Source: Clostridia bacterium
GTDB taxonomy: Bacteria; Bacillota; Clostridia; Christensenellales; Aristaeellaceae
Direction of reading: 5' to 3'
Assembly (NCBI GenBank): GCA_017523615.1
Contig: JAFWWK010000007.1
Span: 5,582-69,581, forward strand
DNA length: 64,000 bases
Shown here: positions 927 through 56,149 of the stretch, one piece after another
Numbering within the stretch: position 1 is the first letter of the stretch
Layout of the letters: each line of letters starts with the position of its first letter
Notes under the pieces: model-generated
The model's database searches: none
Told to the model about the DNA's origin: nothing
What the model saw: the letters and a program-made list of their open reading frames with translations, nothing else
Made by a program: the position numbers and the translations under genes

Positions 927-984
927 GTTTCAAATCTTAAGGGCTGGGACAGCATCCCGGTTTTTCCGGAAAGGAAGGTTCCGT

Positions 985-1527: not shown

Positions 1528-1536
1528 AATCGGCGT

Positions 1537-1815
1537 TCATCTTAAGAAGAACCAGTACCCTGCAAAAAGAAGGCCAGCCTGGATGAGCAGGAACAGAGGG
1601 AAAAACACCCGGAAGTACCAGTGTTTTGTCTTGTGACGGCACAGAAACATGCCAAGGACGCCCCCGAACCCCCCAAAGCAGGCAGCCGCAATAAACAGCG
1701 TCTTTTCCGACACCCGCCATTTGCCATTCCTGGCACACTGTTTGTCATAAGCCATCAGGAAAAAAGAGACCAGGTTCGTTATAAGGAGCAGGGCTCCCAC
1801 GATCAACAGCTTCAT
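1537..1815 (-). CDS. DUF1294 domain-containing membrane protein
   Basis: 92 aa. The motif AYDKQCARNGKWRVSEKTLFIAAACFGGFGGVLGMFLCRHKTKH matches the DUF1294 signature (DK..A....WR..E..L......GG..G......HKT.H). RBS AGGAG. Confidence 0.85.
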   Translation of the reverse strand: MKLLIVGALLLITNLVSFFLMAYDKQCARNGKWRVSEKTLFIAAACFGGFGGVLGMFLCRHKTKHWYFRVFFPLFLLIQAGLLFAGYWFFLR

Positions 1816-1829
1816 ATCTTTCTCCTAAT

Positions 1830-2534
1830 TTAACTTGCGCCTTTCCTTAAGGGGCGGAGACCGGGGCAGAATACCAGCAGGGAATCCTTCAGCCGCTGAT
1901 GCGTCACTCGGGATGCATCGAAACGGACCACACGGAATGCCGTCTGCATGACCGGACCGGTGCACAGAGCGCAGATCACCGTACCTATCCCCACCGGGCC
2001 GCCCAGCAGCCAGCCGATCAGTGTCGCTGAGGAAAGCAGCGCGATGCTGACAGCGCCGATGGGAATGTGCCTGAGCTTTTTATCCAGGCCGACCAGTAGC
2101 GTATCCCGGGGCCCGCAGCCCAGGGCCGCCGACATATAAGTGAACTGGGTAAAAGCAAGGATGACCAGGCCCAAGAACATGACCGGGATGCCCGTCCACA
2201 GGGAAGCGCAGTCAGGCACGGCATGGATCGCATCGAAAAAGTCCACAGCCTTGCCAACCACCACCGCGTCGATAAACATCGCGATGCCGATGGGCTCCTT
2301 CATCAGGACGTCGATGATCAGGATGGTCACTGACACGGCGATGGACGCCGTCCCATACAGGATGCCCAGGCTTTTAGACAGGCCCAGGTTGAGCACGTCC
2401 CAGGGCGCAGCACCCAGGTTGGCACGGATGGTCAGGTAGACCCCGAACCCGTTGACAAACAGGCTGAGAGCCGCGATCAGCATATTCAGGACGATTGCAA
2501 GAGGTGTCCTGTTTTCCCTCAGATCTTTTTGCAT
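1830..2534 (-). CDS. YczE/YitT-like membrane protein
   Basis: 234 aa, polytopic. The N-terminal FGVYLTIRANLGAAPWDVLNLGLS resembles B. subtilis YczE-type proteins. RBS GGAGG. Lies 14 nt upstream of the DUF1294 gene on the same strand. Confidence 0.65.
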   Translation of the reverse strand: MQKDLRENRTPLAIVLNMLIAALSLFVNGFGVYLTIRANLGAAPWDVLNLGLSKSLGILYGTASIAVSVTILIIDVLMKEPIGIAMFIDAVVVGKAVDFFDAIHAVPDCASLWTGIPVMFLGLVILAFTQFTYMSAALGCGPRDTLLVGLDKKLRHIPIGAVSIALLSSATLIGWLLGGPVGIGTVICALCTGPVMQTAFRVVRFDASRVTHQRLKDSLLVFCPGLRPLRKGAS

Positions 2535-2584
2535 GGCCGTTTATCCTCCAACGCCCGGCGTTGCCGAGGTCATCCGACGCCGCC

Positions 2585-3394
2585 TCAAGCAAAAATGCGG
2601 ATGAGGCTCGCAGCCTTCGGGATCAGGCAGGGGACCTCTCCCCCGTATTTCGCGTCCAGATAATCCGAAAAGGCTTCCGGGTCGGCACTGTTATCGGCAA
2701 ACATATCCCAATGCCCGGGAACGGCCAGCCCCGGCCGCAGTTCTCCCGCCAGATCCGCCGCTTCCTGGAAGGTCATGTTGCCGATGCAGTCGCGGCGGTA
2801 TCTTTTGGCATCCCGGCCATTGATGGGGAGCAGCGCAAGATTCATCGGGCCAAGCGCCTTCAGCTTCGGAAGCATCCCTTCATAGCGCAGGGTATCTCCG
2901 GCGTGGTAAATGCGGACCCCATTCCCCTCAATAACGTACTGCAGGCAGGGATAAGTCCCGGATGACACATCCCGGCGAAGGAATTCATGAGCGGCGGCCA
3001 CGGCGCGGACAGTCACGTTCCCGATCCTCACCGTTTCTCCGTCGTCCATGCCCAGGCACTTTTCCTCCCGAACGCCGTCCCGGAGGACGGATGCCAGATG
3101 CGCCCTGGGAAAGACAAAAAACGCGTCCGGGCAGTTTTTTGCCCAGACCTGCCAAGCCGCATGATCAATATGGTCAAGATGGTCATGGGTGCCGATGAAT
3201 ACGTCGACACCCATGACCTGATCCATGGGCACCGGAGGCGGAGTGCGGCGGTCGGGCGAATCGGATGCGTAATAGTCAACGCAAAGGACCGTCTCCCCCA
3301 GTTTGATCATTAGGCCCATCTGGCCCAGCCACCACACTGCGGCGCCGCCAGAGGATACCTTTTCTTCCAGGACCGACTGAAGAAACCCGTTCAT
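2585..3394 (-). CDS. MBL-fold metallo-hydrolase (UlaG-like)
   Basis: 269 aa with the GTHDHLDH metal-binding motif and later HAGD/PGHWD motifs. Its ATG overlaps the MerR stop codon (ATGA). Confidence 0.85.
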   Translation of the reverse strand: MNGFLQSVLEEKVSSGGAAVWWLGQMGLMIKLGETVLCVDYYASDSPDRRTPPPVPMDQVMGVDVFIGTHDHLDHIDHAAWQVWAKNCPDAFFVFPRAHLASVLRDGVREEKCLGMDDGETVRIGNVTVRAVAAAHEFLRRDVSSGTYPCLQYVIEGNGVRIYHAGDTLRYEGMLPKLKALGPMNLALLPINGRDAKRYRRDCIGNMTFQEAADLAGELRPGLAVPGHWDMFADNSADPEAFSDYLDAKYGGEVPCLIPKAASLIRIFA

Positions 3395-3777
3395 TTCTTA
3401 TCCGCCTCCCGCTCTTCATAGGTCCGGAGCTTTTCAGAAAAGAAATTCAGTTTCCATGTCACCTTGTCCAGGTGCTTCTGCATTTCCGACATCCGTTCGA
3501 TCACGGCCTCCCGGTGCTGCCGGAGCATTTCCACCCGTTCCTTCAGCGTGTGCTCGCCCTGGTGCGTCAGTTCGACAAAACGGCCGATCTCCTGCAGGGA
3601 CATCCCGGTGTTTTTCAGGCAGCAGATAAGGCCAAGGGACTCCAGATCCTCGTCGGTATACTGGCGAAAACCGCCCCGGCTGCGTTCTACGCCCGTAATC
3701 AGTCCTTCCTTTTCGTAATAGCGCAGGGTATGAGCCGACAAGCCTGTTTTTTTGCTGACATCCTGAATGGAATACAT
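3391..3777 (-). CDS. MerR family transcriptional regulator
   Basis: Start moved to MYSIQDVSKKTGLSAHTLRYYEKEGLI, which has RBS GGGAGG 7 nt upstream. Canonical MerR N-terminal HTH followed by a coiled-coil. No Cys-rich metal site is evident. Confidence 0.9.
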   Translation of the reverse strand: MYSIQDVSKKTGLSAHTLRYYEKEGLITGVERSRGGFRQYTDEDLESLGLICCLKNTGMSLQEIGRFVELTHQGEHTLKERVEMLRQHREAVIERMSEMQKHLDKVTWKLNFFSEKLRTYEEREADKK

Positions 3778-3798
3778 AAAATTTCCTCCCGAAAACAA

Positions 3799-3829
3799 TC
3801 GACTTAGAGTGAACTTGAAGGATTATGAT
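3799..3829 (+). promoter_or_regulatory. MerR-type promoter (19-nt spacer) with internal dyad, driving the GH10 operon
   Basis: TCGACT (3799-3804), 19 nt, TATGAT (3824-3829). The spacer contains the imperfect dyad CTTAGAGTGAACTTGAAG (3803-3820; 6 of 9 symmetric pairs). A 19-nt spacer with an internal dyad is the hallmark geometry of MerR-activated promoters. Confidence 0.45.
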
Positions 3830-3887
3830 GAAGATAATAACAGGTTTTGTTCCGGTTGTCAACCTGATCTGACGTAAGGAGGATAAC

Positions 3888-5108
3888 ATGGATGCACTTA
3901 AACACCGGCAGGCGGCTGCCCGCCTGCTCATCCTTGATCACGACGGAACGCCCGCGGCGAACCGTCCCGTAACGGTGGACCAGGTGTCCCACCGCTTCCT
4001 TTTTGGCAGCGGCGCTTTCGACGCGGTAGCCATGATGAAAACCCAGGACGAAGAACGCCGGTCCTTCCTGAAGGAGCGTATGGACAAATGGTTTGGGCTG
4101 TTCAATTACGGCACCCTCCCCTTCTACTGGGGACGCTACGAGCCGGAGGAAGGCCGTACAGCCTATACCGAGACCATGGCCGCGGCACGATATCTGAGGG
4201 AACGCGGCGCCGCGGTCAAAGGGCATCCGCTCTGCTGGCATACGGCCTGCGCCCCCTGGCTTTTGAAATACTCCAACGAGGAGATCGTGTCCCGGCAATT
4301 GGAGCGTATCCGCCGGGATGTATCCGCTTTCCGGGACGTGATCGGCCTTTGGGATGTGATCAACGAAGTCGTGATCATGCCGGAATTTGACCGTTACGAC
4401 AACGCCATTACCCGCATCTGTAAGGATCTGGGACGTGTAGGGCTGGTCCGCGAGGTGTTCGCAGCTGCGAAGGAAACCGATCCCGGAGCGGTGCTCCTGA
4501 TCAATGACTTCAATACCGGCAAAGCTTACGAAGACCTGGTGGGATCTCTTCTTGATGCCGGTGTTCCCATCGGCGCCATCGGCATCCAAAGTCACCAGCA
4601 TCAGGGCTACTGGGGCCTTGAAAAGCTGAACGACGTGCTGCGCCGTTTTTCACGCTTCGGCCTTCCGATCCATTTTACCGAGAATACCCTGATCTCCGGT
4701 GATCTGATGCCGCCCCACATTGTGGACCTGAACGACTGGCAGGTGGACCGCTGGCCCTCCACGGAGGAAGGCGAGGAACGCCAGGCCCGGGAAATGGCGG
4801 AAATGTATTCGGTGCTCTTTGCCCATCCCCTGGTGGAGGCCATCACCACCTGGGATTTCAACGACGGCTGCTGGCTGAAGGCCCCCTCCGGCCTTGTCCG
4901 CGAGGACAACAGCAAAAAGCCCTGTTACCGCGCGCTTATGGGATTGATCCATGGGGACTGGGAGACGCATCCGGAGCTCGTGACGGATCAGGATGGGTAC
5001 CTGTCTTTTACCGGTTTCAAAGGCGGATACACCCTCGCCTGCGGCGGCGGCCAGGCCGGGCTTGAGCTGACCGACAACATGAACGGTCAGGTCACGCTGA
5101 CACGATAA
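3888..5108 (+). CDS. glycoside hydrolase family 10-like (endo-1,4-beta-xylanase fold), no signal peptide
   Basis: 406 aa with RBS AGGAGG. Motifs: LPFYWGRYEPEEG, GHPLCWH, WDVINEV (acid/base Glu context), IGIQSH, IHFTENT (nucleophile Glu context; diverges from the classical ITELD). Confidence 0.75.
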   Translation: MDALKHRQAAARLLILDHDGTPAANRPVTVDQVSHRFLFGSGAFDAVAMMKTQDEERRSFLKERMDKWFGLFNYGTLPFYWGRYEPEEGRTAYTETMAAARYLRERGAAVKGHPLCWHTACAPWLLKYSNEEIVSRQLERIRRDVSAFRDVIGLWDVINEVVIMPEFDRYDNAITRICKDLGRVGLVREVFAAAKETDPGAVLLINDFNTGKAYEDLVGSLLDAGVPIGAIGIQSHQHQGYWGLEKLNDVLRRFSRFGLPIHFTENTLISGDLMPPHIVDLNDWQVDRWPSTEEGEERQAREMAEMYSVLFAHPLVEAITTWDFNDGCWLKAPSGLVREDNSKKPCYRALMGLIHGDWETHPELVTDQDGYLSFTGFKGGYTLACGGGQAGLELTDNMNGQVTLTR

Positions 5109-9922: not shown

Positions 9923-11521
9923 TCAGCGCTCAAACCGGCTCAGGAAGCGCCAGGCCGCCTCACAGGTATGCTCGCGGCATTCATGTCCCTGACCGCTGAC
10001 GCTTGCAAAAGCGGTGCGGACAACGCCGTCCCGGCTTTTGAAATACTGAACGGTAAGGGTGCTGTTTCTCGACGGATCATACACACGTTCCGTCCGGTCC
10101 CCGTCGACGCCCCATATGGGATTCTCCCAACGTTCGCTGTCCTCAAACCGAACATCACATATTTTTTCCGCCTGATTGACTTCCAGCACGTACTTCATTC
10201 TTTCCAGGCATTTTTCCGCCTGGAAGGGCAGCTCCGGCAGCGGCGTTTCCTCTCCCCCGGCATAGAACAGCGGTACGGGTACCGAACGGTTTATATCCGA
10301 CGGCGCGGGCTTGCCATAGACGTTCAGGCCCACCTCGAAGGTCGCGTCCATCGGCGCAAGACCGGCGAAAACCTCCGGATATTCCTGGTACAGGTCCCAT
10401 GATTTGCACCCGCCCATGGAGAACCCCGTAGCATAGATCCTGGCGCTGTCGATGGGATATCTCTTTTCCAGTTCCCTGATCAGTTCGATCGTTTCCGTCG
10501 CCGTCGAGTTCAGGTGGTTTTCCACCGCGACCAGCAGGAAGCCGTGCCGCATCGCGATCCGCCACCATCCTGAAACATGGGCGATATGATAAGCCGAATC
10601 ACCGCCTCCATGAAAGGCCAGGACCAGCGGCACGGGCCCGTTTTCCATCAGGCCCTTTTTGTACCACGCAATATAGCCGATCCGGTGGGTCTCTTTTCCC
10701 GCGTCGTCGCCCCTGTTATCCGGGGAGGTACGGACCAACGCAGCTGCCGTCTCTTCCGTCATGCCGTACTCGTCCATATCCGGCTCTTCCTCCAGCTTAC
10801 CGCACCAGCGTTTGTACCGTCCCAGAAATTCCAGGTGATCCCTCTCAAAGTTATTCGGACTGCCGATACGGAAATGATCGCAGCGTGCGGAAAGCGCGGC
10901 ATTGATCTTTTCCGTATTGCTCACCGAAATAACCGGGATATCCCGGCGCTCGAGTACGGGGACTGCGGACAGCCTCTCAAGCGTCACCCCCAGGGGCGTG
11001 ATCTCTCCCGGGCCCCACAGGTACTGACCTTGGATCGTCTTCAGGAGGCACCGGGCGATATAATCGGCGGAGCTGCCGCACCCGTACAGGCAGGTGCGGA
11101 AAATCGCTCCACGGATATAACAGTCGCCCCAGCTGCCGGTAAAACGTTCGCGGCTCATGACGATGCCGTCACGATAGTACTGATGAATTCGGGACTCAGC
11201 CACAAGATCGATAAACAACCGTTCATTGACGGCGTCCCATCCTCCCGCAGCATTCGGATATACAAACACTACGCTTGTGGAAAAGCGCTTTGCCAGCGAC
11301 ATCAGTCCCCGTTCCCGCGCATACCGCAGCGCATCCTCCGGGGATCCCTCTTTTTCTTCCAGCACGATCAGGTAAGGCGCCTTAAAGCCAAAGTTGATAT
11401 CATCCGCCAGGGGGGCCGGATCGGGCACAAGCGTCTTTATACGGAATCTCTCAAAAACGTGCGTCCATGTCTTTACCCCTTCGTCCAGAAGACTGACCTT
11501 TGGCATCAACTTCATCCCCAT
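9923..11521 (-). CDS. alpha/beta-hydrolase esterase (PHB-depolymerase / CE1-like) with about 270-aa N-terminal domain of unknown function
   Basis: 532 aa with RBS AGGAGG. The C-terminal half has LAFHGGGDS and the nucleophile elbow GFSMGG. No signal peptide. Confidence 0.7.
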   Translation of the reverse strand: MGMKLMPKVSLLDEGVKTWTHVFERFRIKTLVPDPAPLADDINFGFKAPYLIVLEEKEGSPEDALRYARERGLMSLAKRFSTSVVFVYPNAAGGWDAVNERLFIDLVAESRIHQYYRDGIVMSRERFTGSWGDCYIRGAIFRTCLYGCGSSADYIARCLLKTIQGQYLWGPGEITPLGVTLERLSAVPVLERRDIPVISVSNTEKINAALSARCDHFRIGSPNNFERDHLEFLGRYKRWCGKLEEEPDMDEYGMTEETAAALVRTSPDNRGDDAGKETHRIGYIAWYKKGLMENGPVPLVLAFHGGGDSAYHIAHVSGWWRIAMRHGFLLVAVENHLNSTATETIELIRELEKRYPIDSARIYATGFSMGGCKSWDLYQEYPEVFAGLAPMDATFEVGLNVYGKPAPSDINRSVPVPLFYAGGEETPLPELPFQAEKCLERMKYVLEVNQAEKICDVRFEDSERWENPIWGVDGDRTERVYDPSRNSTLTVQYFKSRDGVVRTAFASVSGQGHECREHTCEAAWRFLSRFER

Positions 11522-11679
11522 GGTGTACCCTCCTTCGACATACCGGTATTTTGCGGACAGCCGCTGTTTTTTTATTCCGTTACGGGATCAGGACAATCCA
11601 TCCGTGCTGCCGGCATGATGCTGCGATTTATATGGACACGTGCACGCCTCAGTTTTCCGACAAATAAAGGAGATCTTTC

Positions 11680-12258
11680 TTATGGCAGTTTGACATATAC
11701 TTCAAATTCGCCATAATCCCAGCCGCGCAGCATAAAAAACACGCCGGTTGATTTGTTCGTTGCCTCCAGGCGGCCTTTATTGACATAGACGTTTTTCCAA
11801 GACGCTTTCAAATTATTTAACGCCCATTCACCGATCCAGCCGCGCTGGAGAATCGCATACGTGTCGTCAGGTGAAAGCATGGCCGTTCCGTCTGGAAAAT
11901 TTATGTCATCAAATAAGCCCAGATCATACAGCGTATACGCAAAGGCATAATAGACGCTGATCCCCTCGCTCCATGTAAAGCCGTTGTTTCCTTCGCGGGG
12001 CACTGTCTGCAGATCGTCGAACCAGCCGCGGAACACGATTTCTGTGATTTCACCGTTATTCGTATTTATGTACATTTCATAATCGTGGTAATTTACAACC
12101 CCCTCGACGCGGTAGATGTCCGTTTTTTTCCATGTACCCGGCAGGTTTTTCGACAAGAACAGGTCGATCACGGCATTGGGCCTGACAGCCGAGGCGGATC
12201 GAAAGACGCCGAACACGGCCATCACCATCACGGTCAGAATTACGGGAACGCGTTTCAT
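11680..12258 (-). CDS. secreted hypothetical protein
   Basis: 192 aa with the signal-peptide-like N-terminus MKRVPVILTVMVMAVFGVFRSASA. Trp/Tyr-rich mature part. No family recognised. Confidence 0.55.
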   Translation of the reverse strand: MKRVPVILTVMVMAVFGVFRSASAVRPNAVIDLFLSKNLPGTWKKTDIYRVEGVVNYHDYEMYINTNNGEITEIVFRGWFDDLQTVPREGNNGFTWSEGISVYYAFAYTLYDLGLFDDINFPDGTAMLSPDDTYAILQRGWIGEWALNNLKASWKNVYVNKGRLEATNKSTGVFFMLRGWDYGEFEVYVKLP

Positions 12259-45586: not shown

Positions 45587-46258
45587 TCAAGTATCGATCA
45601 GTTTTCCAGCATCCATGCGCAAAAGGACATCGGCGTAATCAGCAGCTTCCGGGTCATGCGAGACCACAAAAACCCCTTTTCCCTTTTGCGCCGTTTCCTC
45701 CAGGATCCTAAGCGTTATCGCCGTGTTCTCATCGTCAAGATCGGCGGTGGGTTCGTCCGCGAATACAAAATCCGGTCCCGCGGTCAGGGCGCGCACAACG
45801 GCCATGCGGCGAAGCTCCCCGCCGGAAAGTTCACCGGGCCAGGCATTCCGCAGCCGCAGGATCCCCAGACGTTCCATGAGGGTCTCCGCCTGGCGGACGG
45901 GCGGCGCAGATCCTGCCAGCGCGGCGGGAAACAGGATATTTTCCATCACCGTCATTGAAGTGATAGCTGAGGCTCCCTGCGGGATCACCGCAAAGTGCCT
46001 TGCTCGCAGCTGTGAAAGCCCGGCGTCGGACAGGCTGTACAGATCCTTCCCGTCAAGCGCCACGGTCCCTTCGGACGGAGTCAGCAATCCGGCCAGCATG
46101 GTCATCAGCGTCGTTTTTCCGCTGCCCGAACGTCCTGTCAGGACCATCATCTCACCGCTGCGCAGCGTCAGGTCAGCATGATGTACGGCTTCAAAAAAAT
46201 TGGCGTCTCCGGTATTGCGCCGAAACCGCCTGGCCAGGCCGCAAGCGGCAAGTTCCAT
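45587..46258 (-). CDS. ABC transporter ATP-binding protein (MacB/LolD-type)
   Basis: Walker A GRSGSGKTTL, signature LSGGELRR, Walker B VFADEPT. RBS GGGAGGGAG. Confidence 0.9.
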   Translation of the reverse strand: MELAACGLARRFRRNTGDANFFEAVHHADLTLRSGEMMVLTGRSGSGKTTLMTMLAGLLTPSEGTVALDGKDLYSLSDAGLSQLRARHFAVIPQGASAITSMTVMENILFPAALAGSAPPVRQAETLMERLGILRLRNAWPGELSGGELRRMAVVRALTAGPDFVFADEPTADLDDENTAITLRILEETAQKGKGVFVVSHDPEAADYADVLLRMDAGKLIDT

Positions 46259-46259
46259 A

Positions 46260-47462
46260 TCAGGCTCCCTCCCTCACGATCGTGCCGATGTCCGCTCGGC
46301 TGAGTTTACGGGCGGAGAGCAGGGCGGCCGTGGGGCCGACAGCGCAGACCGCCGCCAGGGATGCAGCACACAAAGCCAGCATGGCAGGCAAGTCAGGCCG
46401 CAGGAATGGCAGTCCCAGGGTCTGCTCGATCAATCCCGTGAACGGCAGAAAGGTAAGCAATCCCAGGAATATCCCATTCATTCCTCCGAATAAGGATACC
46501 AGGGCCGCTTCCCTCAGCGCCAGACCGGCAAGGCCCCTGCGCGACAAACCGAGCAAACGCAAAACAGCAAACTCCCGCCTGCGTTCGCCTCCCAGCAGCA
46601 GAAAAGCCGCCGTCAGCAAAACCAGGTCCAGCAGCCAAACGCAGACGATCAAAACGGAAATGGTATGCGCTACCCCGCCCAGGGAACGCTCCACATCGGA
46701 TGTGACTGTCCGGGTCTGGATCACGGTGACTCTGGGACTGCGAGTCTGCCTGATCTCCCCCGCAAGCCGGTCTGCTTCGCCCGGGACCGCTTTCACGTAG
46801 ACGGCAGAAACGACCCCGGAAGGATCGCCGTCGATTTTCAATTCGTGGTTCATTTCCCGTGCTGCCGACAACAATTCTGCCATGGTCTCCATGGTGCAGT
46901 AAACAGCGGTATCAAGACCGGTGCCGCTCTCGTCCAGCCGGGCTGCCACCAGGCAAGGCTGCCCGTATATGCGGATGGTCTCGTTTACCCCCGCGCTCAC
47001 CCTGCTGCCCGCCACGACTTCCATTTTGCCCAGTTCCGTTTTCAGTTGTTCCCCGATCCAAGGGCGTATGGTAAAGTCCGTCGCCTGATCAAAACCGATG
47101 ACCTGAATGGGCATGGAGCAGCAATCCGCCCTCAGGCTGGCCAGGAAAACCTGTCCTGAAGCCTGCGCAACGCCCTTCATTGCACGGATCTCGTCCAGTT
47201 TCGAGGCGTTCATATAATAGTATCCGGTGGTACCCTGCAGATATATCTTCTCCGGGTCGATCTTCCCGCGGCTCGTGGCCGGGACCACGATCAGATCCGC
47301 ACCGAGGCGGTTTTCAAGGCTGTGAAGGCCGCGGTTCAGGCTGATCACGATCGCCGACCCGCCAAAAAGCGACAGTGCCAGAAAAGCGACCAGCACCGTC
47401 AGCGAGGCGGTACGTCCCGGATGGCGCAGAAGATTCCGCAGCGGCAGTTTTCGTGGAGTCAT
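46260..47462 (-). CDS. ABC transporter permease, FtsX/MacB-type
   Basis: Start set at MTPRKLPLRNLLRHPGRTASL, whose ATG overlaps the stop of the upstream DUF4418 gene (ATGA). Topology is TM1, a large extracytoplasmic domain, then 3 C-terminal TMs. Confidence 0.85.
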   Translation of the reverse strand: MTPRKLPLRNLLRHPGRTASLTVLVAFLALSLFGGSAIVISLNRGLHSLENRLGADLIVVPATSRGKIDPEKIYLQGTTGYYYMNASKLDEIRAMKGVAQASGQVFLASLRADCCSMPIQVIGFDQATDFTIRPWIGEQLKTELGKMEVVAGSRVSAGVNETIRIYGQPCLVAARLDESGTGLDTAVYCTMETMAELLSAAREMNHELKIDGDPSGVVSAVYVKAVPGEADRLAGEIRQTRSPRVTVIQTRTVTSDVERSLGGVAHTISVLIVCVWLLDLVLLTAAFLLLGGERRREFAVLRLLGLSRRGLAGLALREAALVSLFGGMNGIFLGLLTFLPFTGLIEQTLGLPFLRPDLPAMLALCAASLAAVCAVGPTAALLSARKLSRADIGTIVREGA

Positions 47463-47863
47463 GAACCGGCCTCCCGTCTTTTTGCGGTCAGGCAAAGCAC
47501 GAGCTTCCACAGGGAGACTGCCAGAGTCAGCACGCCCAAAACCAGCGCTGTCGGACCGGTCACCAGACGGCAGCGCATCGTATCCGCCCTGCAGACAGGA
47601 ACGATGACCCCGGGGATCAGGATCACAAGTATGCTCGCGGCTGCCGTCATGCATGGAAACACCCATTTAGGACGAAGGAAGGATACGCCTGCAAGCGCGG
47701 TAATGACGCCGCCCATGACCGTCAACCATGTTTTCACCGGGGCACAGACGGCTGCGCTACCATCCGCATGCACACAGGGGCAAGCGAAAGTCTGGGCCCC
47801 GACGGAAAGGACGACTCCAAGGAAAGCCATGACAGAGCCGAATGCGATATCTCTTTTTTTCAA
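47459..47863 (-). CDS. DUF4418 family Cys-rich small membrane protein
   Basis: 134 aa, 4 TM. Cys motifs FACPCVHADGSAAVCAP and PVCRADTMRCRL fit the conserved-Cys pattern I recall for DUF4418. Confidence 0.7.
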   Translation of the reverse strand: MKKRDIAFGSVMAFLGVVLSVGAQTFACPCVHADGSAAVCAPVKTWLTVMGGVITALAGVSFLRPKWVFPCMTAAASILVILIPGVIVPVCRADTMRCRLVTGPTALVLGVLTLAVSLWKLVLCLTAKRREAGS

Positions 47864-47869: not shown

Positions 47870-48550
47870 TCACTCCCCGAAATGCTCGTTCACGACCTCG
47901 CGGACCAGTCTGCCATGCTCCAGGACAATGGTACGCTGAGCCGCTTCAGCCACCTCCGGGTCATGGGTAACGACGATCAGGGTAGTCCCTTCCCGATGCA
48001 GCTGGCGGAACAGGTCCAGAACAATGTTTTCGTTGGTCTCGTCCAGGTTGCCTGTGGGTTCGTCCGCAAGGATCAGTTCCGGATGATTGATGAGTGCCCT
48101 GGCCACGCACACACGCTGCTGTTCGCCGCCGGACAACTGGCTGGGCAGGTGTCTCGCGCGTTCCCGAAGGCCGACCCTCTCCAGCGCTTCCAGCGCTTCC
48201 GCCTCATCTGGCATGGAGTGATAATACTGGGAAACCATGACGTTCTCCACAGCTGTCAGATAGTTTACCATATGAAACTGCTGAAAGATCAGACCGATCT
48301 TATCCCGGCGGATGTCGGTCAAACGCCTGGAGGATTCCTTGGCGATGTCAATACCGTCAAGAAACACCTGGCCCTTGGTGGGCTTGTCCATACAGCCGAT
48401 GATGTTCATCATTGTGGATTTGCCGGAACCCGAAGGCCCCATGATGGCCACCCATTCCCCCTGATCCACCCTGATGCTCACGTTGTCCAGGGCTTTCAGC
48501 TCGCCATATATTTTGGAGACATTGCGGATATCAAGCAGACTCATGGTCAT
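47870..48550 (-). CDS. ABC transporter ATP-binding protein (MacB/LolD-type)
   Basis: Walker A GPSGSGKSTMMN, signature LSGGEQQRV, Walker B ILADEPTGNLD. Confidence 0.95.
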   Translation of the reverse strand: MTMSLLDIRNVSKIYGELKALDNVSIRVDQGEWVAIMGPSGSGKSTMMNIIGCMDKPTKGQVFLDGIDIAKESSRRLTDIRRDKIGLIFQQFHMVNYLTAVENVMVSQYYHSMPDEAEALEALERVGLRERARHLPSQLSGGEQQRVCVARALINHPELILADEPTGNLDETNENIVLDLFRQLHREGTTLIVVTHDPEVAEAAQRTIVLEHGRLVREVVNEHFGE

Positions 48551-50037
48551 TCTCCTTTCAGAACCAGCGCGGGGTCGATGGCCACAGCGCGCCTGACGGG
48601 CAGCAGACAGCTGAGAGCGGCTACAGCCATTGACACAAGCACCGTGATCGGCAGCAGCCAGAAATTGAACCGGATATCGGATCCGAAAACGTTCACACTG
48701 ACGACCTGCGCAAAGACAAATCCCAGTGCCGCGCCGAGCAGGCCGCCCAGCGCTCCGAGGAACAGTCCTTCCCCAAGGAATTCCCCGCGGATGGCGCCGT
48801 CCGACGCACCCAGAGCCTTTCTCAGACCGATCTCCCGGCGCCTCTCGGTAACCACCGCCATCATGGTGGTCGATACGCTCACCATGGTCAGCACCAGGAC
48901 CACGAGTGTCACCAGAAAAACAAGCGCCTGCAGCTTGCCCAGCACCGAAGTCTCAGATTTGGTCACGCGCTTCACCAGACGAGCGGTGGCATGGCCCGAT
49001 TCCGTTATCTCTTCCGCATAGCGCTCCAGGCTGTCCTGAGTCGCTGAAACGGAGAGTTCCACCAGGTCCAGCTGATCATATGTGCCTGTGATCACGCCCA
49101 TATCGGCCAGGGACATATAAATATATCCTTCTTCCTCCCCGCCGGTCTCGAGGATGCCGACCACAGTGTAATTGATCGTGTGGGGAATATGGGCCGCGCT
49201 TTCTTCCGTCAAAGGCCTTGCGTCTCTGATCGCCTGGACGACCGCCGCCGAGGTCACAGTAGCGCCGGAAACAGCGTCCACATCCCTGCCCAAAGTCAGA
49301 TCCTTTGGATCCTTGCCTATAAAAAGGCCCGTGAACTCTTCTTCGCTGCATTTGGTGCCGACGCCCGCCGTTTCACTGGAGGTATCCACAATGAGGGAAG
49401 CGATGGTGCCGTCCTCGCCAACGGTAAAGGTCACGTACACCGGATTGTCGTTGAATCCTTCACGGCTGCCATATCCCTGCGCGCGGCCGGAAAGCGTCAT
49501 CCCCGGAAGAATGTCAAAATCCGCACTTCCCCGTTCCTCCTCCGGCTCATTCGGCGGGAACCATGTAAGCTCCATGACCCCGTTCAGCCTCGCGCCGACG
49601 GTATCCGCCACACCCTTGCCGACCAAAACTTCCCTGGGACCTTCGGGATAACGGCCGTTCACCTTAAAATATGGGCTTGTGCGCTTTACCTGTTCAAAGT
49701 CTGTACCCGCAGCGGCGAAAGACTGCTGGCGGCGCACCATGTTCAGGTATTCATACCTGTAAGGGGCGGCCCCCACCCGTTCTTCCTCAGGGATCAGTGA
49801 CATAGCAGCGTCCGCTTCTCCCTGTGTCAGGGCGGATCCGTAAGGGACCAACAGCATATTCGCGCCGTAGGACCGGAACTGCGCCGCCATCTGCCTGGGC
49901 ACATCCACATAAACCGTAACAAGACCCGCCAGGATCGTTGCGCCTATGCCGATGGAGAGTAGAGCGATCAGCATCCTTGACCTTCGGCGCAGGAGGGAGG
50001 CGGTGATCATCCGGAAAAACATTCTTCGTTTGCTCAT
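48547..50037 (-). CDS. FtsX/MacB-type ABC permease with an FMN_bind domain inserted in the extracytoplasmic loop
   Basis: 496 aa: TM1, a ~330-aa loop, then 3 TMs. Loop residues ~178-272 read GRAQGYGSREGFNDNPVYVTFTVGEDGTIASLIVDTSSETAGVGTK...GRDVDAVSGATVTSAAVVQAIRDA, the FMN_bind signature including the flavinylation motif SGAT. Confidence 0.85.
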   Translation of the reverse strand: MSKRRMFFRMITASLLRRRSRMLIALLSIGIGATILAGLVTVYVDVPRQMAAQFRSYGANMLLVPYGSALTQGEADAAMSLIPEEERVGAAPYRYEYLNMVRRQQSFAAAGTDFEQVKRTSPYFKVNGRYPEGPREVLVGKGVADTVGARLNGVMELTWFPPNEPEEERGSADFDILPGMTLSGRAQGYGSREGFNDNPVYVTFTVGEDGTIASLIVDTSSETAGVGTKCSEEEFTGLFIGKDPKDLTLGRDVDAVSGATVTSAAVVQAIRDARPLTEESAAHIPHTINYTVVGILETGGEEEGYIYMSLADMGVITGTYDQLDLVELSVSATQDSLERYAEEITESGHATARLVKRVTKSETSVLGKLQALVFLVTLVVLVLTMVSVSTTMMAVVTERRREIGLRKALGASDGAIRGEFLGEGLFLGALGGLLGAALGFVFAQVVSVNVFGSDIRFNFWLLPITVLVSMAVAALSCLLPVRRAVAIDPALVLKGE

Positions 50038-50054
50038 TGTTCAAGCCTCCTTCC

Positions 50055-51353
50055 TCAAGCTTTGCTGCCATGCAGTACTTCGGCCGGATCCAGCCGCAGG
50101 ATCATGCGGATAGCCGGCAGGGAACCCGCAATAGTCACAAGGGAGATCAGCACCACCACCACCGGAATGACCACCGCCTTGATGTCAATGGACGAACCGA
50201 AGACCTGCCTGCCGATGAACCGTGCCATTCCGAGGCCCGCAAAATAACCGACTGCCGTGCCCACCATGGCAGTCAGCAGGATCTCCGCCATGACGACGCA
50301 TGTAATGGCTTTGTCATGGGCTCCGACCGCTTTCAGAAGACCGATCTCCCGGGACCGTTCCATGACCGAGGCGGTCACAAGGTTTGAAATGCCCAGCGCG
50401 GCGCCTACAAGGCTCAGCGCGGTAATAAGGATCATCAGGAGCTGCGTTTTGTTCAGGATCTCGCCCTCGCTCTCCGCCACCTGCCGGACCGCGGAAGCCG
50501 CGGAATCCGTAATGACCTCGGTGATCTGATAGCAGACCGCGCTGACATAAGCCGTGCAGTACCATGTATCGTAATCGGCCCGGGAGAGCGCCTTGGGGTT
50601 CTGGGCGGCACGCCTTGCCAGATCGTTGTCGGGTGTCGTAATGGCGCTGACCTCAACAGACGCTACCTTACCTTCCAGCCCCGCCAGCATTTGTGCCAGG
50701 TCCAGCGGCGCCCAGATTTGTCCGTCGGCGCTGTCGCCGGAATCGAAAACGCCCCGCACCGTGACAACGGCTTCTGAAGCCGTCCCAGTCAGCGTAACGG
50801 TATCTCCTTTTTTGACGGCCAGCCTTTCGGCAAGCGCGGCACCCACCATGATCTCCCTGTCCGCCCCAGGAGCCTGTTCATCGATCCAGTCCTCATCCGG
50901 AACATCCCACCAGGAGCGCAGGCTCCGGACGCCGGCATCCAGTTCCTCGCCCGTGGGCAGGGACAGATGGTGATTGAACCATGTCCCCGTTACGGAGACA
51001 GTTTCTTCCCCGATCCTGGCGCTGACGCTGATGAAGGGGGCGAAATCACGGATATTGAAAGCCCAGAATATGGTTTTCAGGTTGCCGAGCTCATCTTCTT
51101 TCAGCCATGCCTGCTGCAGTTCCGATCCTTCATCCTCTACATCGTAGATCTCCGACAAAAGGGAGGAAGCCTTGGGTTTTACGACGATATTAGCGCCATA
51201 GGCTTTCAATTCCTCATTGACCTTGTCTCCGACGTCCAGCATAACGTTGATCATGGAGGTGGCCAGAGAGGCCCCCAGCGCGATCGTCAGCGCAATAAGC
51301 AGCATCTTGCTCCACTGCCTCACCAACGCGCCTTTGATCATCCGAAACAGCAT
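50055..51353 (-). CDS. FtsX/MacB-type ABC permease
   Basis: 432 aa. N-terminal MIKGALVRQWSKMLLIALTIALGASLATSM, a large loop and 3 C-terminal TMs. RBS GGGAGGGG. Confidence 0.85.
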   Translation of the reverse strand: MLFRMIKGALVRQWSKMLLIALTIALGASLATSMINVMLDVGDKVNEELKAYGANIVVKPKASSLLSEIYDVEDEGSELQQAWLKEDELGNLKTIFWAFNIRDFAPFISVSARIGEETVSVTGTWFNHHLSLPTGEELDAGVRSLRSWWDVPDEDWIDEQAPGADREIMVGAALAERLAVKKGDTVTLTGTASEAVVTVRGVFDSGDSADGQIWAPLDLAQMLAGLEGKVASVEVSAITTPDNDLARRAAQNPKALSRADYDTWYCTAYVSAVCYQITEVITDSAASAVRQVAESEGEILNKTQLLMILITALSLVGAALGISNLVTASVMERSREIGLLKAVGAHDKAITCVVMAEILLTAMVGTAVGYFAGLGMARFIGRQVFGSSIDIKAVVIPVVVVLISLVTIAGSLPAIRMILRLDPAEVLHGSKA

Positions 51354-51369: not shown

Positions 51370-52875
51370 TTACTTGAATTCTTTTTCGCCGGCGATCAGA
51401 TCGTCCATGGCAAAGACGATGTTTCCGCCTTCTACCCGGAAAGCCAGGGGGATCGGATTGCAGCCGCCCGCAAGTCCGATGGTGTTGGTGTTCATCACCA
51501 CGTCGCAGCGCTTGCAGACCACAGTGTCCCCCCTCTGGAAATAGCCGGCGCTGCCGCAGACGTCACACGCATCCAGCCCGACCCCATATGCGGCGGAATT
51601 CGGTTTTCGGATCACGATCCAGCGAACGCGCGGTGCCTTGTTCGGCGAACCGGACCGGTTCATCTCAAACGCGTGGAGGTTGAAATCATCCACCTGACTC
51701 AGCGGAATGCGCACCTCGATCCGCGATGTATCGTAATTTTTCACATCGACGGCTTCGATCTCACGCTCCTTGCCGTCCTCCCCGATCAGGACAATCGCGT
51801 AGGTCTCCCCCTCGGGAACGGGCGGCGGACGGTTGCAGATCTCATAAACCACTGTCAGGCTGACCATAACGGCGGCCAAAGAAACCAGCACGACGGCGGC
51901 CCATCTGCGGCTGTGCCGGTTGTCGGAGCAAAGACGCCGCTTCTCGGCCGCATTGCGCCAGATGCCGCGCAGCCTCAGGCTTCTCAGGAAGAGCACAGCA
52001 GGCGGGATCATGGCCATCAGTGCAAAAATCAGCAGGATAAAGACTCCGTTTTCAAGATACCCGCCCCTCGTGTGATCGCTTGCCATATACCATTTCCACC
52101 CGGGAAACAGCGGTCCGCCGGCGCTTGCGTTGTTGCGCACCGTGAATTTGAGGAAGGTTTCCGCGTTCAAATGCGGCAGCAGCGTCGGGACCCATTCCGG
52201 CCGTGTTTTTACAGTCCATTGCTGCAGGACCATGCCGTAAAAAACAAAGAAAAGCGCAAACGTCATCAGCGCCGCAGTCAAACGCAGCACCCATCGTCCG
52301 TCACTGACAGGCCGCCCATCCCGATCATTCCACAGCGCAGTGATCTCGCTCAGACGCATACAGCATTTATACAGGAAACGGACATAGACCGCCAGCAGGA
52401 TAAGGCCCGTCAGCCAGCCAGCCAAACGGAGCAGGAATACATCGGAAAGGATCCCGTTATCACCCATTTCAAAATCGCGGGGCGCCCAGATCACCGCCCA
52501 GGCTTTATAAGCGATCAGATCGGCGGAAAGCAGGGCGGAAAGCGCGTTTACGGCCGTTTTGCCTGTCTGCGATCCCTTCTCCTGGGAAAAAACGGAAGCA
52601 GTGATATTCAGGGGCACCAGGATGCCCATGGCGGCATACCACAGGTACAGGTTGATCTGCGTATCCGGAACGGCTTTCTTATCCGGGAAGAAAAATGCCG
52701 GAAACTCATGTGTGACAGCCCGGAGAACGGCCAAGACCAGACCCAGACCGATCCCAGCCAGCATCATGTTTTTTCCCGCTTTGCCCAGGTTCGTTTTTGC
52801 GAGCGCAAACAGCACTGTGATGACTGTCACGACAATGAAAAGGGTTTCCGGGACCTTATACATATGGAGCAGCAC
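51370..52875 (-). CDS. DUF2318 domain-containing polytopic membrane protein (Cj1660-like)
   Basis: The C-terminal soluble domain GLDACDVCGSAGYFQRGDTVVCKRCDVVMNTNTIGLAGGCNPIPL matches the DUF2318 Cys signature. The start is uncertain: GTG at 52875 (GGAGG 8 nt upstream), ATG at 52863, or the track start at 52923. Confidence 0.8.
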   Translation of the reverse strand: MLLHMYKVPETLFIVVTVITVLFALAKTNLGKAGKNMMLAGIGLGLVLAVLRAVTHEFPAFFFPDKKAVPDTQINLYLWYAAMGILVPLNITASVFSQEKGSQTGKTAVNALSALLSADLIAYKAWAVIWAPRDFEMGDNGILSDVFLLRLAGWLTGLILLAVYVRFLYKCCMRLSEITALWNDRDGRPVSDGRWVLRLTAALMTFALFFVFYGMVLQQWTVKTRPEWVPTLLPHLNAETFLKFTVRNNASAGGPLFPGWKWYMASDHTRGGYLENGVFILLIFALMAMIPPAVLFLRSLRLRGIWRNAAEKRRLCSDNRHSRRWAAVVLVSLAAVMVSLTVVYEICNRPPPVPEGETYAIVLIGEDGKEREIEAVDVKNYDTSRIEVRIPLSQVDDFNLHAFEMNRSGSPNKAPRVRWIVIRKPNSAAYGVGLDACDVCGSAGYFQRGDTVVCKRCDVVMNTNTIGLAGGCNPIPLAFRVEGGNIVFAMDDLIAGEKEFK

Positions 52876-52994
52876 GTCAGAGACCTCCGATGAGCAATGA
52901 ATTAAACAGTTGGGAAAGCGCACAACGGCCGGCGCGAGTCTCCCCCGCGGAGAATCGCGCCGGTTCAGGATGAGCCTGTGGCAGTCCGGTCAGA

Positions 52995-53552
52995 TCACCA
53001 TTCCTGCACGAAGTATTCCCATCCCTCAAACGTCACTTCGATGGGTTCGGACCAAAAGCGGCCTTCTACGCCGGTCTCGGGGTCGACATGCAAAAGATAA
53101 CCGTTTTCGGCAGGACTGTGGATGGTAAGCACCAAGCTGTATACGCCGTCCACATCCAGCTTGATATTGGCGCCGTAATGAGGCCCGTCGGAAGCCGCCA
53201 TGGGCATGAAGGTGCCTTCGGAGTACACCTTGCCTTCAGCGTCAACCACCTTGTAATCGATGGTCAGATAGGGGATCCAGTCACCCACGCCATACCCCAG
53301 GCTGTTTTCATTGGCGGAGATATCGGCTTCGATATGGATGTTGGCTTCCTCAACGCTCAGGCCGGCCTCGGCGGCAGGCTCCATCACCACGGGCTGGAAA
53401 TAAACAGCAGCAATATGGATGATCGAATCGGGACCCACATCCTGCTCGTCACCGATCGGGAATTCTTCAAAACCGGCTTCTTCCTCCGCCAGGGCGGAAA
53501 CGGCAAACAGCATCATGGCGGCAAGCAGCAGGGCAAACAGTTTCTTCATCAT
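52995..53552 (-). CDS. P19/Tp34-type periplasmic iron-binding protein (Iron_transport family)
   Basis: Start at MMKKLFALLLAAMMLFAVSALA (AGGAGG 6 nt upstream). Motifs IHIEADISANE, GDWIPYLTIDY, MPMAASDGPHYGANI and HVDPETGV. Confidence 0.9.
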   Translation of the reverse strand: MMKKLFALLLAAMMLFAVSALAEEEAGFEEFPIGDEQDVGPDSIIHIAAVYFQPVVMEPAAEAGLSVEEANIHIEADISANENSLGYGVGDWIPYLTIDYKVVDAEGKVYSEGTFMPMAASDGPHYGANIKLDVDGVYSLVLTIHSPAENGYLLHVDPETGVEGRFWSEPIEVTFEGWEYFVQEW

Positions 53553-53655: not shown

Positions 53656-55521
53656 TCATTCCGCGGGGACCGCTTTAGGCGCATTGCCTCCATTTGCACC
53701 GGCCGTATGGACTCTTTCAGCCTCCGCCAGTTTTTCCTCGTACATTCGACGCTGGGCTGTGAGCTTTCCGCGGTAATGCGCACAAAGGAAGGTGACGATC
53801 AGAATGACGGCAAGGATCAGCTGAGGCAGGAGCGTCTCCAGATAGGGATAAATACCCAGCACCTGCACCACGTCGTTCTCAGGGATCCCCTCCACTCGGC
53901 GAACCACCTCAAACGCGCCGCCTTCCGAAAGCTCCTTGATCCCGGAGCCGAGAAACGCCACGCACATCACGGCCATCAGGATGGATGTAGCAGTGAAAAA
54001 CACCTTGATCGGCAGCCTGACCGACAGCTTCGTGATGGCCAGGTAGACAAAAACCAGCAGCACGCATCCGGTGAGGAAACCCCAGATGACCATGCTGACA
54101 TGGGAGGCGTCATCGCCGAACAGCATGGGCTGATAGAACAGCACCACCTCGGCCCCTTCCCGAAATACGGCCAGGAAGGCGGTAAATGCCAGGGTGAACG
54201 CCGATCTCTTCTCCACTCCCGCCTGGACTTTCCTGTCAATGTATCCTGTCCACGCAGCGGCTTCGGATTTTGAGATCATCCAGTTTGAAACATAGAACAG
54301 CACGCATACCGCTATGAGCGCCGTAATGCCCTCGATCAGCTCCTGAGCCATACCACCGGCCACCGCGGCCTTTTTGATGAAATAGAGCGCAGCGGCGGCG
54401 GCAAAACTTGCCGCGATGCCTGCCAGCGCGCCGGCATAAACATGCTTCAGGCTTCCGCGGCGGCCGCTTTTGACCAGGTAGGCGATGATGGCCCCGATAA
54501 CGAGGATCGCCTCCAGGCCTTCACGCACGATGATCCCGAAAGCTCCCCAGAAATTGGCCCACCGGGCCGCGTCCGCCGCGCCGGGCGTGGGACCGGCGGG
54601 CGTCACTTCTTCCGTGGATCCGGAAACAGCCGGCGTCTCCGCTTCGTCTATGCGGACGGCCGCTGTGCGGATCACCTTTTTCAGAAAGTTGCGCGCGGTC
54701 TTCCATGGATTAGATTTATATTTGCCGCTTTCCAGTGCTTCCTCGGGGACTGCCCTCAGGGAAGCGAAGGCTCCCTCCGCGGTCAGCCTTTCATCCGAGC
54801 CAAGCGCGGTATATATTTTCCGGCTGAATCCGGATTCCTCATAGACCGCGAAATACGCGGTGTTGATGTTGTCCAGGGCGGTTTCATAGTCGCGGCCGCC
54901 ATAAGCTTCCTCCGCCGTATCGATCAGGGCAAAGATCATCTCAGCCGCCTCTGTCCAGGACCTGTACTGTGCGCCGGAGCCATTCCCCGCCAGGGCAGCC
55001 CAGGGATCAGATGCTGCCCGCACGCCGTCTTTCCAGAAAGAGACCGTCGTCTGGGGCTGCGGGGGCTCCATTCTGGCAGCAAGCTTGTTGGCGTCCTCTC
55101 TGATCATGCTCTTGAGCTTGTTCAGTTCCGACCGCACGGCTATCTGAGTCTCTTCGCTGAGATCGGTATTTTTCACAGCCCGCTTGCAGGTCGTGAACTG
55201 CAGTTCCACAGCGTTTTTCCTGGGTCCTGAAACATAGGTCATGGTCTGCCGTTCGAAACCCGTGGTCTCATAAACGCAGAAATAGGCGTTGTTGACACAG
55301 TCATAACCATTCGCCGTATCCCCTGCCAGGTAGTACTCAAAAGCTTGGTCCAGAAATTCATCAATGCGGTCAGCGGCGGAACCCCATCGGTTCCCGGCCA
55401 TGTCATAGCGTTCGTCATCCACGAAGTTATATCGGCCCGCCGCCGGCGCTTCAATGGGCATGGCTGCCATCAGCACCGTTAGGACTGCCGTCAGCACGAT
55501 GGCGAACCTTTTTATCTTCAT
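53656..55521 (-). CDS. FTR1-family high-affinity iron permease with ~300-aa N-terminal extracytoplasmic domain (FetM-like)
   Basis: 621 aa with a signal peptide. Two REXXE motifs (VREGLEAIL, FREGAEVVL) sit in a 7-TM C-terminal half. Confidence 0.9.
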   Translation of the reverse strand: MKIKRFAIVLTAVLTVLMAAMPIEAPAAGRYNFVDDERYDMAGNRWGSAADRIDEFLDQAFEYYLAGDTANGYDCVNNAYFCVYETTGFERQTMTYVSGPRKNAVELQFTTCKRAVKNTDLSEETQIAVRSELNKLKSMIREDANKLAARMEPPQPQTTVSFWKDGVRAASDPWAALAGNGSGAQYRSWTEAAEMIFALIDTAEEAYGGRDYETALDNINTAYFAVYEESGFSRKIYTALGSDERLTAEGAFASLRAVPEEALESGKYKSNPWKTARNFLKKVIRTAAVRIDEAETPAVSGSTEEVTPAGPTPGAADAARWANFWGAFGIIVREGLEAILVIGAIIAYLVKSGRRGSLKHVYAGALAGIAASFAAAAALYFIKKAAVAGGMAQELIEGITALIAVCVLFYVSNWMISKSEAAAWTGYIDRKVQAGVEKRSAFTLAFTAFLAVFREGAEVVLFYQPMLFGDDASHVSMVIWGFLTGCVLLVFVYLAITKLSVRLPIKVFFTATSILMAVMCVAFLGSGIKELSEGGAFEVVRRVEGIPENDVVQVLGIYPYLETLLPQLILAVILIVTFLCAHYRGKLTAQRRMYEEKLAEAERVHTAGANGGNAPKAVPAE

Positions 55522-55762: not shown

Positions 55763-56149
55763 ATGAGAGGAGCATTGGATTTGAAGACAAAACAAAGCAG
55801 CACGATCGATCTGGTAAAAGCCGCCGAAGCCTATATGGAAGCACACAGCGCGGAAAAATTTTCCTTGAATGAAATGGCCGGTGCGCTGTTCGTCAACGGA
55901 AGCTATCTTCTTCGTACATTCAGGAAACATACGGGCATGACCCCGCTGCATTACCACCATCAGCTCCGATGCTCAAAAGCCAGGGAAATGTTGACGCATA
56001 CGGGTCAAAGCATATCGGAGATCGGGGAAGCCGTGGGTTTTGTTTCATCCTCGCATTTTTCCCATATTTTCAGAAACATTGTTGGCTGTTCGCCCAGCGA
56101 ATACCGCAGGATGCACTGCGGCACATCCGGAGAAGGGAACGGTCCATGA
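55763..56149 (+). CDS. AraC-family HTH-only transcriptional regulator (no sensor domain)
   Basis: 128 aa. FSLNEMAGALFVNGSYLLRTFRKHTGMTPLHYHHQLRCSKAREMLTHTGQSISEIGEAVGFVSSSHFSHIFRNIVGCSPSEYRR is a complete AraC double HTH preceded by only ~25 residues. The exact start is uncertain. Confidence 0.8.
   Translation: MRGALDLKTKQSSTIDLVKAAEAYMEAHSAEKFSLNEMAGALFVNGSYLLRTFRKHTGMTPLHYHHQLRCSKAREMLTHTGQSISEIGEAVGFVSSSHFSHIFRNIVGCSPSEYRRMHCGTSGEGNGP

Follow-up and report, generated by a model that had tools for sequence, protein, structure and literature searches.

The stretch of DNA analysed here, called the window in what follows, comprises 64,000 nucleotides of contig JAFWWK010000007.1 (positions 5,582 to 69,581 of the forward strand) from the metagenome-assembled genome (MAG) of a Clostridia bacterium, assembly GCA_017523615.1. 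On its minus strand, one tightly packed row of genes between 45.6 and 55.5 kb includes an iron-uptake operon with FTR1, P19 and components of the Fet type. The open reading frame (ORF) at 48547-50037 (minus strand) of this operon encodes an FtsX/MacB-type permease of 496 amino acids in the FetC position, into which a domain of the FMN_bind family (FMN, flavin mononucleotide) has been inserted. Pfam profiles recognise three domains in the protein: MacB_PCD (PF12704) at residues 23-148 with 30.3 bits (cut-off 27), FMN_bind (PF04205) at residues 199-273 with an E-value of 6.1e-13 and 49.7 bits (cut-off 22), and FtsX (PF02687) at residues 375-489 with an E-value of 1.6e-21 and 77 bits. An earlier reading of the window from its letters alone, referred to here as the sequence-only reading, had placed an FMN_bind domain in the extracytoplasmic loop of this permease and had proposed the PF04205 profile as a check; the profile match and the NqrC/RnfG fold of the predicted structure bear this out. 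That reading had given the insert about 95 residues (49222-49506, residues 178-272), and while the location stands, the size was too small: the folded domain, as delimited by the range of the NqrC fold, with a gap in unfused homologues, occupies about 120 residues (residues 160-279, 49201..49560, minus strand).

The peptide ending in SGAT which the sequence-only reading quoted is present as well, with the heptapeptide SGATVTS encoded at 49249-49269 (minus strand) and SGAT forming residues 257-260. According to a passage of Méheust 2021 (PMC8238504), the flavinylation motif is [S/T]GA[S/T], the last residue of which is modified by ApbE. From the translation and this motif, Thr260 (codon at 49258..49260, minus strand) is predicted to be the site of a phosphoester-linked FMN, so that the permease would be covalently flavinylated at this residue. 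The motif is under strong conservation, as D-x-x-S-G-A-T is present in the insert of all 44 sampled fused homologues (62-92% identical overall), with D254, G258, A259, T260 and S263 invariant in every one of them.

An artificial joining of two unrelated sequences during assembly was considered as a trivial origin of the fusion and is ruled out by its occurrence in 30 independent genomes together with a DNA contig of run X1 which covers 48649-50268 with a single difference. All of the best 120 of 4,449 protein matches (clustered at 90%) carry both PF02687 and PF04205, and a cluster of 118 members in the ESM Atlas contains both domains in 100% of its members. The architecture is thus present in the databases, where NCBI names some of the fused matches ‘FMN-binding protein’ and others ‘FtsX-like permease family protein’. 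Among 301 genomes sampled evenly from the order to which the genome of the window belongs, a match spans both junctions only in that genome and in one more from its family; all remaining matches in the sample cover the FMN_bind part only. A representative all-against-all search returned one full-length fused representative (P0031) among its best 150, with the rest being fragments, and many multi-FMN_bind proteins matched the insert in the same search. Two gut runs labelled as RNA (X12 and X16) contain contigs of 151 nt with at least 95% identity that fall on 49108-49544 and on a few other places of the operon. Any hint of transcription from these is weak at best, as DNA may be present in the libraries and DNA twins of nearly equal size exist.

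The position of the insert within the permease was derived from an AlphaFold2 model built on an alignment of 104 rows (mean predicted local distance difference test score 93.6, predicted template modelling score 0.83), which was used instead of a discarded single-sequence model with a mean local score of 42.3. The whole model resembles YtrF (9o9x_C, Z-score 18.9) and MacB (5nik_J, Z-score 18.5) and, by Foldseek, LolE (E-value 4.3e-17). In this MacB/LolE/YtrF-like fold the insert sits between the first transmembrane helix (TM1, helix 3-55) and the second (TM2, helix 356-398), and an extracytoplasmic location is therefore predicted by the MacB-type topology, as the sequence-only reading had assumed. 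Residues 160-279 superimpose on NqrC (4xhf_A) with a Z-score of 10.0 over 109 aligned residues at 26% identity, on RnfG (7zc6_G) with a Z-score of 8.7, and on domain 1 of CbFMN4 (8p2b_B) with a Z-score of 7.9 over 80 of 81 residues at 32% identity; the repeats of the multi-flavinylated proteins CbFMN4 and SaFMN3 give Z-scores of 7.9 and 7.7, respectively.

The FMN_bind domain is an addition at the tip of a hairpin, between the strands at residues 154-159 and 286-297, where unfused homologues simply close the hairpin. The suggestion that the insert might replace the Sabre or the Porter subdomain does not hold, as both core subdomains are retained and the insert is an extra domain. The periplasmic core of the model aligns with the periplasmic domain of LolE (5udf_A) over 194 of 209 residues and with the extracellular domain of YknZ (5f9q_A) over 158 of 187 residues. 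The order of secondary structure elements, read with the definition of the MacB subdomains, suggests that the hairpin itself belongs to the Sabre part.

Around the permease, the operon has the composition expected of an FTR1/P19 iron-uptake system, and the matches to PF03239 and PF10634 confirm this context, on which the sequence-only reading had also relied. The gene at 53656..55521 (minus strand) encodes an FTR1/FetM-like iron permease of 621 amino acids with a long N-terminal extracytoplasmic region (PF03239, E-value 3.1e-36, residues 328-533), the translation of which carries two RExxE-type motifs, REGLE and REGAE. It is followed by the gene of a P19/FetP-type iron-binding protein at 52995..53552 (minus strand; PF10634 Iron_transport, E-value 3.9e-52); the ORF extends to 53783, and a start at 53552 is likely from the hydrophobic, signal-peptide-like N-terminus that begins with Met-Met-Lys-Lys. 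Next comes a FetA-like membrane protein (51370..52923, minus strand) with a C-terminal FtrD-like/DUF2318 domain (PF10080, E-value 5.4e-25, residues 412-516) and five cysteines in the arrangement CxxC-x13-CxxC-x14-C, which all 71 aligned homologues share without exception and which agree with the CxxC-x13-CxxC-x14/15-C motif given for the DUF2318/FtrD-like protein in a passage of PMC6083913. Two FtsX/MacB-type permeases lie downstream, one of 432 amino acids in the FetB position and free of any insert (50055..51353, minus strand; FtsX E-value 8.7e-18, MacB_PCD E-value 8e-12) and the 496-aa protein with the FMN_bind insert in the FetC position (48547..50037, minus strand; assigned by Pfam and by the model). 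The gene of the latter is overlapped by that of its cognate ATP-binding cassette (ABC) ATPase of 226 amino acids in the FetD position (47870..48550, minus strand; PF00005, E-value 3e-35).

By Pfam, no separate redox partner gene follows the ATPase in this operon: the next gene encodes a small membrane protein of the DUF4418 family (47459..47863, minus strand; PF14387, E-value 1.9e-14), which stands at the position of the stand-alone FMN_bind gene in unfused operons. Beyond it, Pfam finds an additional FtsX permease of 468 amino acids (46260-47666, minus strand) and a second ABC ATPase of 223 amino acids (45587-46258, minus strand). This pair (45587..47666) is probably an accessory module with putative membership of the iron system, and the same pair follows DUF4418 in the loci L002, L008, L040, L071 and L072. 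Upstream of the FTR1 gene, an AraC-family regulator is encoded divergently at 55763-56149 (plus strand; HTH_18, E-value 1.1e-25), and no Fur or DtxR gene adjoins the operon within the 64-kb window.

Fused and unfused operons were compared using 80 loci, the best among 266 related ones in species-representative genomes. The FMN_bind domain lies inside the second permease in 30 of the 80 loci, all of which are from rumen or gut Clostridia-type MAGs. For the 50 unfused loci, 92 of the 114 ORFs of at least 130 amino acids that start no more than 1.5 kb past the ATPase gene were scanned with Pfam, which covered 40 loci. A stand-alone FMN_bind ORF of 140-207 amino acids directly follows the ATPase in 39 of the 50, 36 of them found by Pfam and three (L035, L046 and L066) added by a hidden Markov model (HMM) built from the 36. 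The remaining 11 unfused loci divide into five from Treponema with weak FMN_bind-like matches and six with nothing, three of which have less than 1 kb of sequence past the ATPase. In the Treponema loci (L027, L031, L033, L034 and L055), the matches (E-values 5e-4 to 4e-8 with the same kind of purpose-built HMM) fall in an ORF of about 575-600 amino acids upstream of FTR1, at about 1265-3653 in each.

The picture is reversed in the fused loci, where a stand-alone FMN_bind ORF was found in none of the 30, 22 of which have at least 1 kb of sequence past the ATPase. In 18 of these 22 a DUF4418 ORF follows the ATPase, as compared to 16 of the 50 unfused loci. A phmmer search with the insert alone (E-value 1e-3) recovered zero stand-alone genes from the 50 unfused loci, which marks a limit of sensitivity, since Pfam and the HMM do find them. 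Some unfused loci have further genes next to the stand-alone one: an ApbE gene directly follows it in L068 (2471-3532), L071 (6995-8056) and L079 (2578-3594), which derive from Anaerolineaceae, Desulfosporosinus and Bowdeniella MAGs, respectively, and in L045 the next gene after it (11335-11733) encodes a DtxR-type iron-dependent repressor.

The fusion arose once. In a maximum likelihood tree of the permeases calculated without the columns of the insert (IQ-TREE quick mode, LG+G4, 384 of 630 columns, with Shimodaira-Hasegawa-like approximate likelihood ratio test values as the only support), all 31 fused rows group together in a single clade with a support of 100 and one change of state. The sisters of this clade are unfused rumen Clostridia with a separate FMN_bind gene. 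A simple fusion of the neighbouring gene into the permease was considered and is ruled out by the sequence of the insert, which matches the stand-alone operon type only over a motif region of about 25 residues with E-values of 0.003 or higher. By contrast, blastp aligns the insert with the repeats of multi-FMN_bind proteins at 45-54% identity (E-values 1e-19 to 5e-23), and it is about 40% identical to the genome's own FMN_bind proteins. The single clade, together with the proximity of the insert to multi-FMN_bind repeats, suggests one insertion of a foreign FMN_bind subtype, which would have left the fused loci without their stand-alone partner gene.

Covalent attachment of the flavin would require a transferase, and the observation in the sequence-only reading that the window contains no ApbE/Ftp gene is correct. 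The search of the rest of the genome proposed there yields exactly one match to PF02424 (ApbE) in the assembly (3.31 Mb in 280 contigs, completeness 90.5%, contamination 5.9%), which is located on contig C265 with an E-value of 1.9e-58 (4.5e-58 for the ORF itself). The ORF has a hydrophobic N-terminus, and it is flanked in its cluster (739-4590, locus L001) by a gene with a flavin adenine dinucleotide synthetase domain (E-value 1.5e-39) and by a protein with four FMN_bind domains. The whole genome has 14 domain matches to PF04205 in four ORFs: the 496-aa permease, the protein on C265, an ORF of 896 amino acids on contig C138 (L084/L085) that contains some eight FMN_bind repeats, and, on contig C61 (L093), a WG-repeat protein which ends in FMN_bind. 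A further locus, L082, is listed among the flavinylation and FMN_bind loci of the genome, and the PF04205 scan of the genome returned no canonical short match of the RnfG/NqrC type.

The hairpin that carries the flavin domain is used for other elements in distant homologues of the permease. P0179 and P0266 have an insert of about 45 residues at the hairpin with two CxxCH motifs each, as found in c-type haem modules. A permease 76% identical to P0179 is encoded in the metagenome locus L094 (5498-6829, plus strand), where the order is Fur, FTR1, P19, FtrD-like protein, FtsX, FtsX with the di-CxxCH insert, and ATPase; no separate redox gene lies past the ATPase of this locus, where cobalamin genes follow in the opposite orientation. 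Histidine-rich or methionine-rich low-complexity stretches occur at the hairpin position in P0202, P0234, P0140 and P0196, suggesting an arm in contact with metal. Acidic or glycine-rich inserts are found in P0182, P0186, P0191 and P0228, and in P0166 the insert lies one strand beyond the usual hairpin and combines one CxxCH with a long stretch rich in glycine, alanine and threonine. The recurrent loading of one hairpin with redox or metal-binding elements fits the interchangeability of flavins and cytochromes described in a passage of PMC8238504.

All of this makes it rather probable, though far from assured, that the flavin of the 496-aa permease is an extracytoplasmic one-electron relay to the iron of a Fet-type system. 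The single ApbE of the genome would load Thr260 with covalently bound FMN on the outside of the membrane, and electrons would come from the cell, probably via the FetA-like membrane protein and its five-cysteine domain. The flavin would then pass them to Fe(III), or to a Cu/Fe site, held by P19, after which the iron would enter through the FTR1 permease. In other lineages, the same job would be done by a separate SifE-type FMN-binding protein or by thioredoxins (FetE/F). Donor, acceptor and direction of flow are all inferred; the best candidate for the donor is the FetA-like domain with its five invariant cysteines. A complex prediction with residues 56-356 of the permease and the five-cysteine domain gave a score of 0.16 against a mark of 0.32 and speaks neither for nor against a contact. 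The sequence-only reading had likewise proposed a flavin-based redox step, ferric reduction or electron transfer, next to FTR1/P19; domain, motif, iron context and transferase stand, while the idea itself had already been published (Liu 2018; Méheust 2021).

Several points weigh against such a relay. The ApbE gene lies on another contig of a MAG with an estimated contamination of 5.9%, which means that its origin in the same cell is presumed, and both the flavin on the permease and the redox activity of the FMN-binding partner are predictions, with a putative electron donor. As the insert does not descend from the stand-alone protein of the operon, the equivalence of the two is drawn from position and loss rather than from orthology. 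FetE, the thioredoxin counterpart in Campylobacter jejuni, resembles thiol-disulfide oxidases according to a passage of PMC10783030. Furthermore, the rumen is anoxic and Fe(II) should dominate there, which makes a ferric reductase less necessary and speaks more for either a reversed flow of electrons or a role in maintenance. In the reversed case, Fe(II) would be oxidised at P19 or at the entrance of the permease, as in the ferroxidase-coupled FTR1 systems yeast Fet3/Ftr1 and FtrABCD, and the flavin would accept the electron, to pass it through the cysteine or Fe-S domain of FetA to the membrane. Beyond the anoxic gut and rumen habitat, the Pfam name of the FetA domain, ‘FtrD-like’, speaks for this, FtrD being the proposed electron sink of FtrABCD. 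Covalent FMN in NqrC/RnfG-type domains, however, has low midpoint potentials, which would make it a poor oxidant of Fe(II). The resemblance of FetE to a thiol oxidase and the impairment of sif and apbE mutants of Bifidobacterium breve with ferrous chelators only (a passage of PMC5449479) agree with oxidation, but the proposals published for the cluster, in passages of PMC8238504 and PMC6083913, favour reduction. Oxidation of Fe(II) by way of the flavin is considered unlikely.

A role in maintenance would have the flavin module keep the five-cysteine domain of FetA (be it an Fe-S or a disulfide site) or the copper site of P19 in working order, either as a reductase or as an oxidase. The apparent interchangeability of flavin, thioredoxin and haem-c modules suits such a generic supply of electrons, and the FetA cysteines are strictly conserved in all 71 sequences, but the histidine- and methionine-rich hairpin inserts of other permeases suggest contact with a metal ion rather than with a protein thiol, and this explanation is improbable. 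It is very improbable that the insert carries no redox cofactor here, being an unmodified or non-covalently flavin-binding domain that senses or binds free flavins, or a structural spacer. Its origin in an FMN_bind subfamily other than that of the usual partner of the operon would be compatible with this, yet all 44 fused homologues share the five motif residues without variation, the genome does encode ApbE, and no stand-alone FMN_bind gene was found in the fused loci, which would otherwise be missing the redox function. The one-electron relay towards iron is retained as the preferred explanation.

A wider idea concerns what the permeases and their ATPase do in this system. MacB-type ABC systems act mechanically outside the membrane instead of moving substrates across it. 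Because of this, FetBCD might not be a transporter but an ATP-driven, MacB-like mechanical device, which would move an arm bearing a cofactor or a metal between the cysteine centre of FetA and the entry of P19/FTR1. The hairpin tip of the FetC-position permease would then be the working arm of the Fet machine, loaded in different lineages with a covalent flavin, a di-haem-c segment or His/Met-rich segments, with an ATP-gated hand-off of electrons or metal outside the cytoplasm. This is a speculative extension which is considered unlikely.

What is new in these data is the architecture, namely a foreign FMN_bind subtype in the FetC-position permease that is specific to one clade, and the pattern of the hairpin as a hot spot for inserts. 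The link of Fet/P19-FTR1 systems to FMN-binding genes is already known (Lanigan 2017, Liu 2018, Méheust 2021), with the FMN-binding component appearing as a separate gene in the published passages. Literature searches, which did not include the list of 260 clusters of Méheust 2021, found no paper describing a fusion of FMN_bind with an FtsX/MacB permease. By placing the redox cofactor at one particular hairpin in the FetC position, the fusion indicates the likely site of the redox step, and the parallel haem-c and His/Met-rich inserts point to the same site. It also makes flavinylation, redox potential and geometry accessible to tests in a single polypeptide. The source of the insert is a multi-flavinylated subfamily and not the gene of the operon, which indicates a non-orthologous replacement of an extracytoplasmic redox module. 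Fet/P19-FTR1 systems are widespread, including in gut commensals and pathogens, and their accessory genes are needed for growth under iron limitation: in C. jejuni this holds for each of the genes fetA, fetB, fetC and fetD, while the role of FetBCD and the link to the redox partners are stated to be unclear (in passages of PMC10783030).

The closest relatives in gene order are FetMP-FetABCDEF (cj1658-1665) of C. jejuni and the FetMP-Fls clusters on plasmids of E. coli and Salmonella, which have the order FTR1-P19-DUF2318-FtsX-FtsX-ATPase in common with the operon of the window. The plasmid cluster of E. coli reads FTR1, iron transporter, Fe-S-containing protein, permease, FtsX-like permease, ATP-binding protein and TlpA disulfide reductase, and its second permease is the best match of the 496-aa protein, with 33.5% identity in two pieces that skip the insert. 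In these systems the redox partners are separate genes of the thioredoxin family, whereas here the flavin domain is inside the permease, and the operon belongs to a rumen Clostridia MAG of the Gram-positive type. A passage of Liu 2018 (PMC6083913) reports that Actinobacteria, Firmicutes, Spirochaetes and Synergistetes carry a predicted FMN-binding protein instead of a thioredoxin as the seventh gene, and suggests either of the two as a source of reducing power for ferric iron, a proposal for FMN-binding or thioredoxin genes which also appears in passages of PMC8238504 and PMC10783030.

The P19 clusters with an FMN-binding gene, 260 of which are counted, mostly in Gram-positive bacteria, in a passage of Méheust 2021 (PMC8238504), and the bfeUO-sifABCDE cluster of B. 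breve resemble the operon of the window in having an FMN_bind domain with a flavinylation motif in the same type of operon, where it is proposed to provide iron assimilation with redox power outside the cytoplasm. SifE is an FMN-binding protein of such a cluster (Lanigan 2017, PMC5449479, in a passage), and in these clusters the component is, in the passages concerned, separate, small and membrane-anchored, whereas the domain of the window is fused and of another FMN_bind subtype. The B. breve mutants mentioned above are transposon mutants of sifABCDE and apbE, and the apbE phenotype is ascribed to Fe-S metabolism by the authors in a passage of PMC5449479. A connection of the apbE and sif phenotypes through flavinylation of SifE would be a more direct explanation.

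In fold and motif, the insert agrees with NqrC/RnfG and with CbFMN4 and SaFMN3, yet the former are subunits of ion-pumping redox complexes and the latter are multi-domain conduits, while the insert is a single domain in the loop of an ABC permease. PplA of Listeria, a comparison from flavin-based extracellular electron transfer that is also drawn in a passage of PMC8238504, has an ApbE-flavinylated FMN_bind domain outside a Gram-positive membrane that is tied to iron reduction, as proposed for the insert. PplA differs from the permease-borne domain in being a lipoprotein outside any transporter, with a supply chain of Ndh2, EetAB and quinone. Finally, the Type VII ABC systems (MacB, LolCDE, YtrEF, FtsEX and HrtBA) are like the 496-aa permease in their four-helix FtsX membrane domain and in the large extracytoplasmic domain between TM1 and TM2, with an ATPase that is either separate or fused. 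The solved structures among them that matched the model have no cofactor-binding domain within their extracytoplasmic part, unlike the 496-aa permease, which differs from these systems also in being part of an iron-uptake operon, where it probably forms a heterodimer of the FetB/FetC type.

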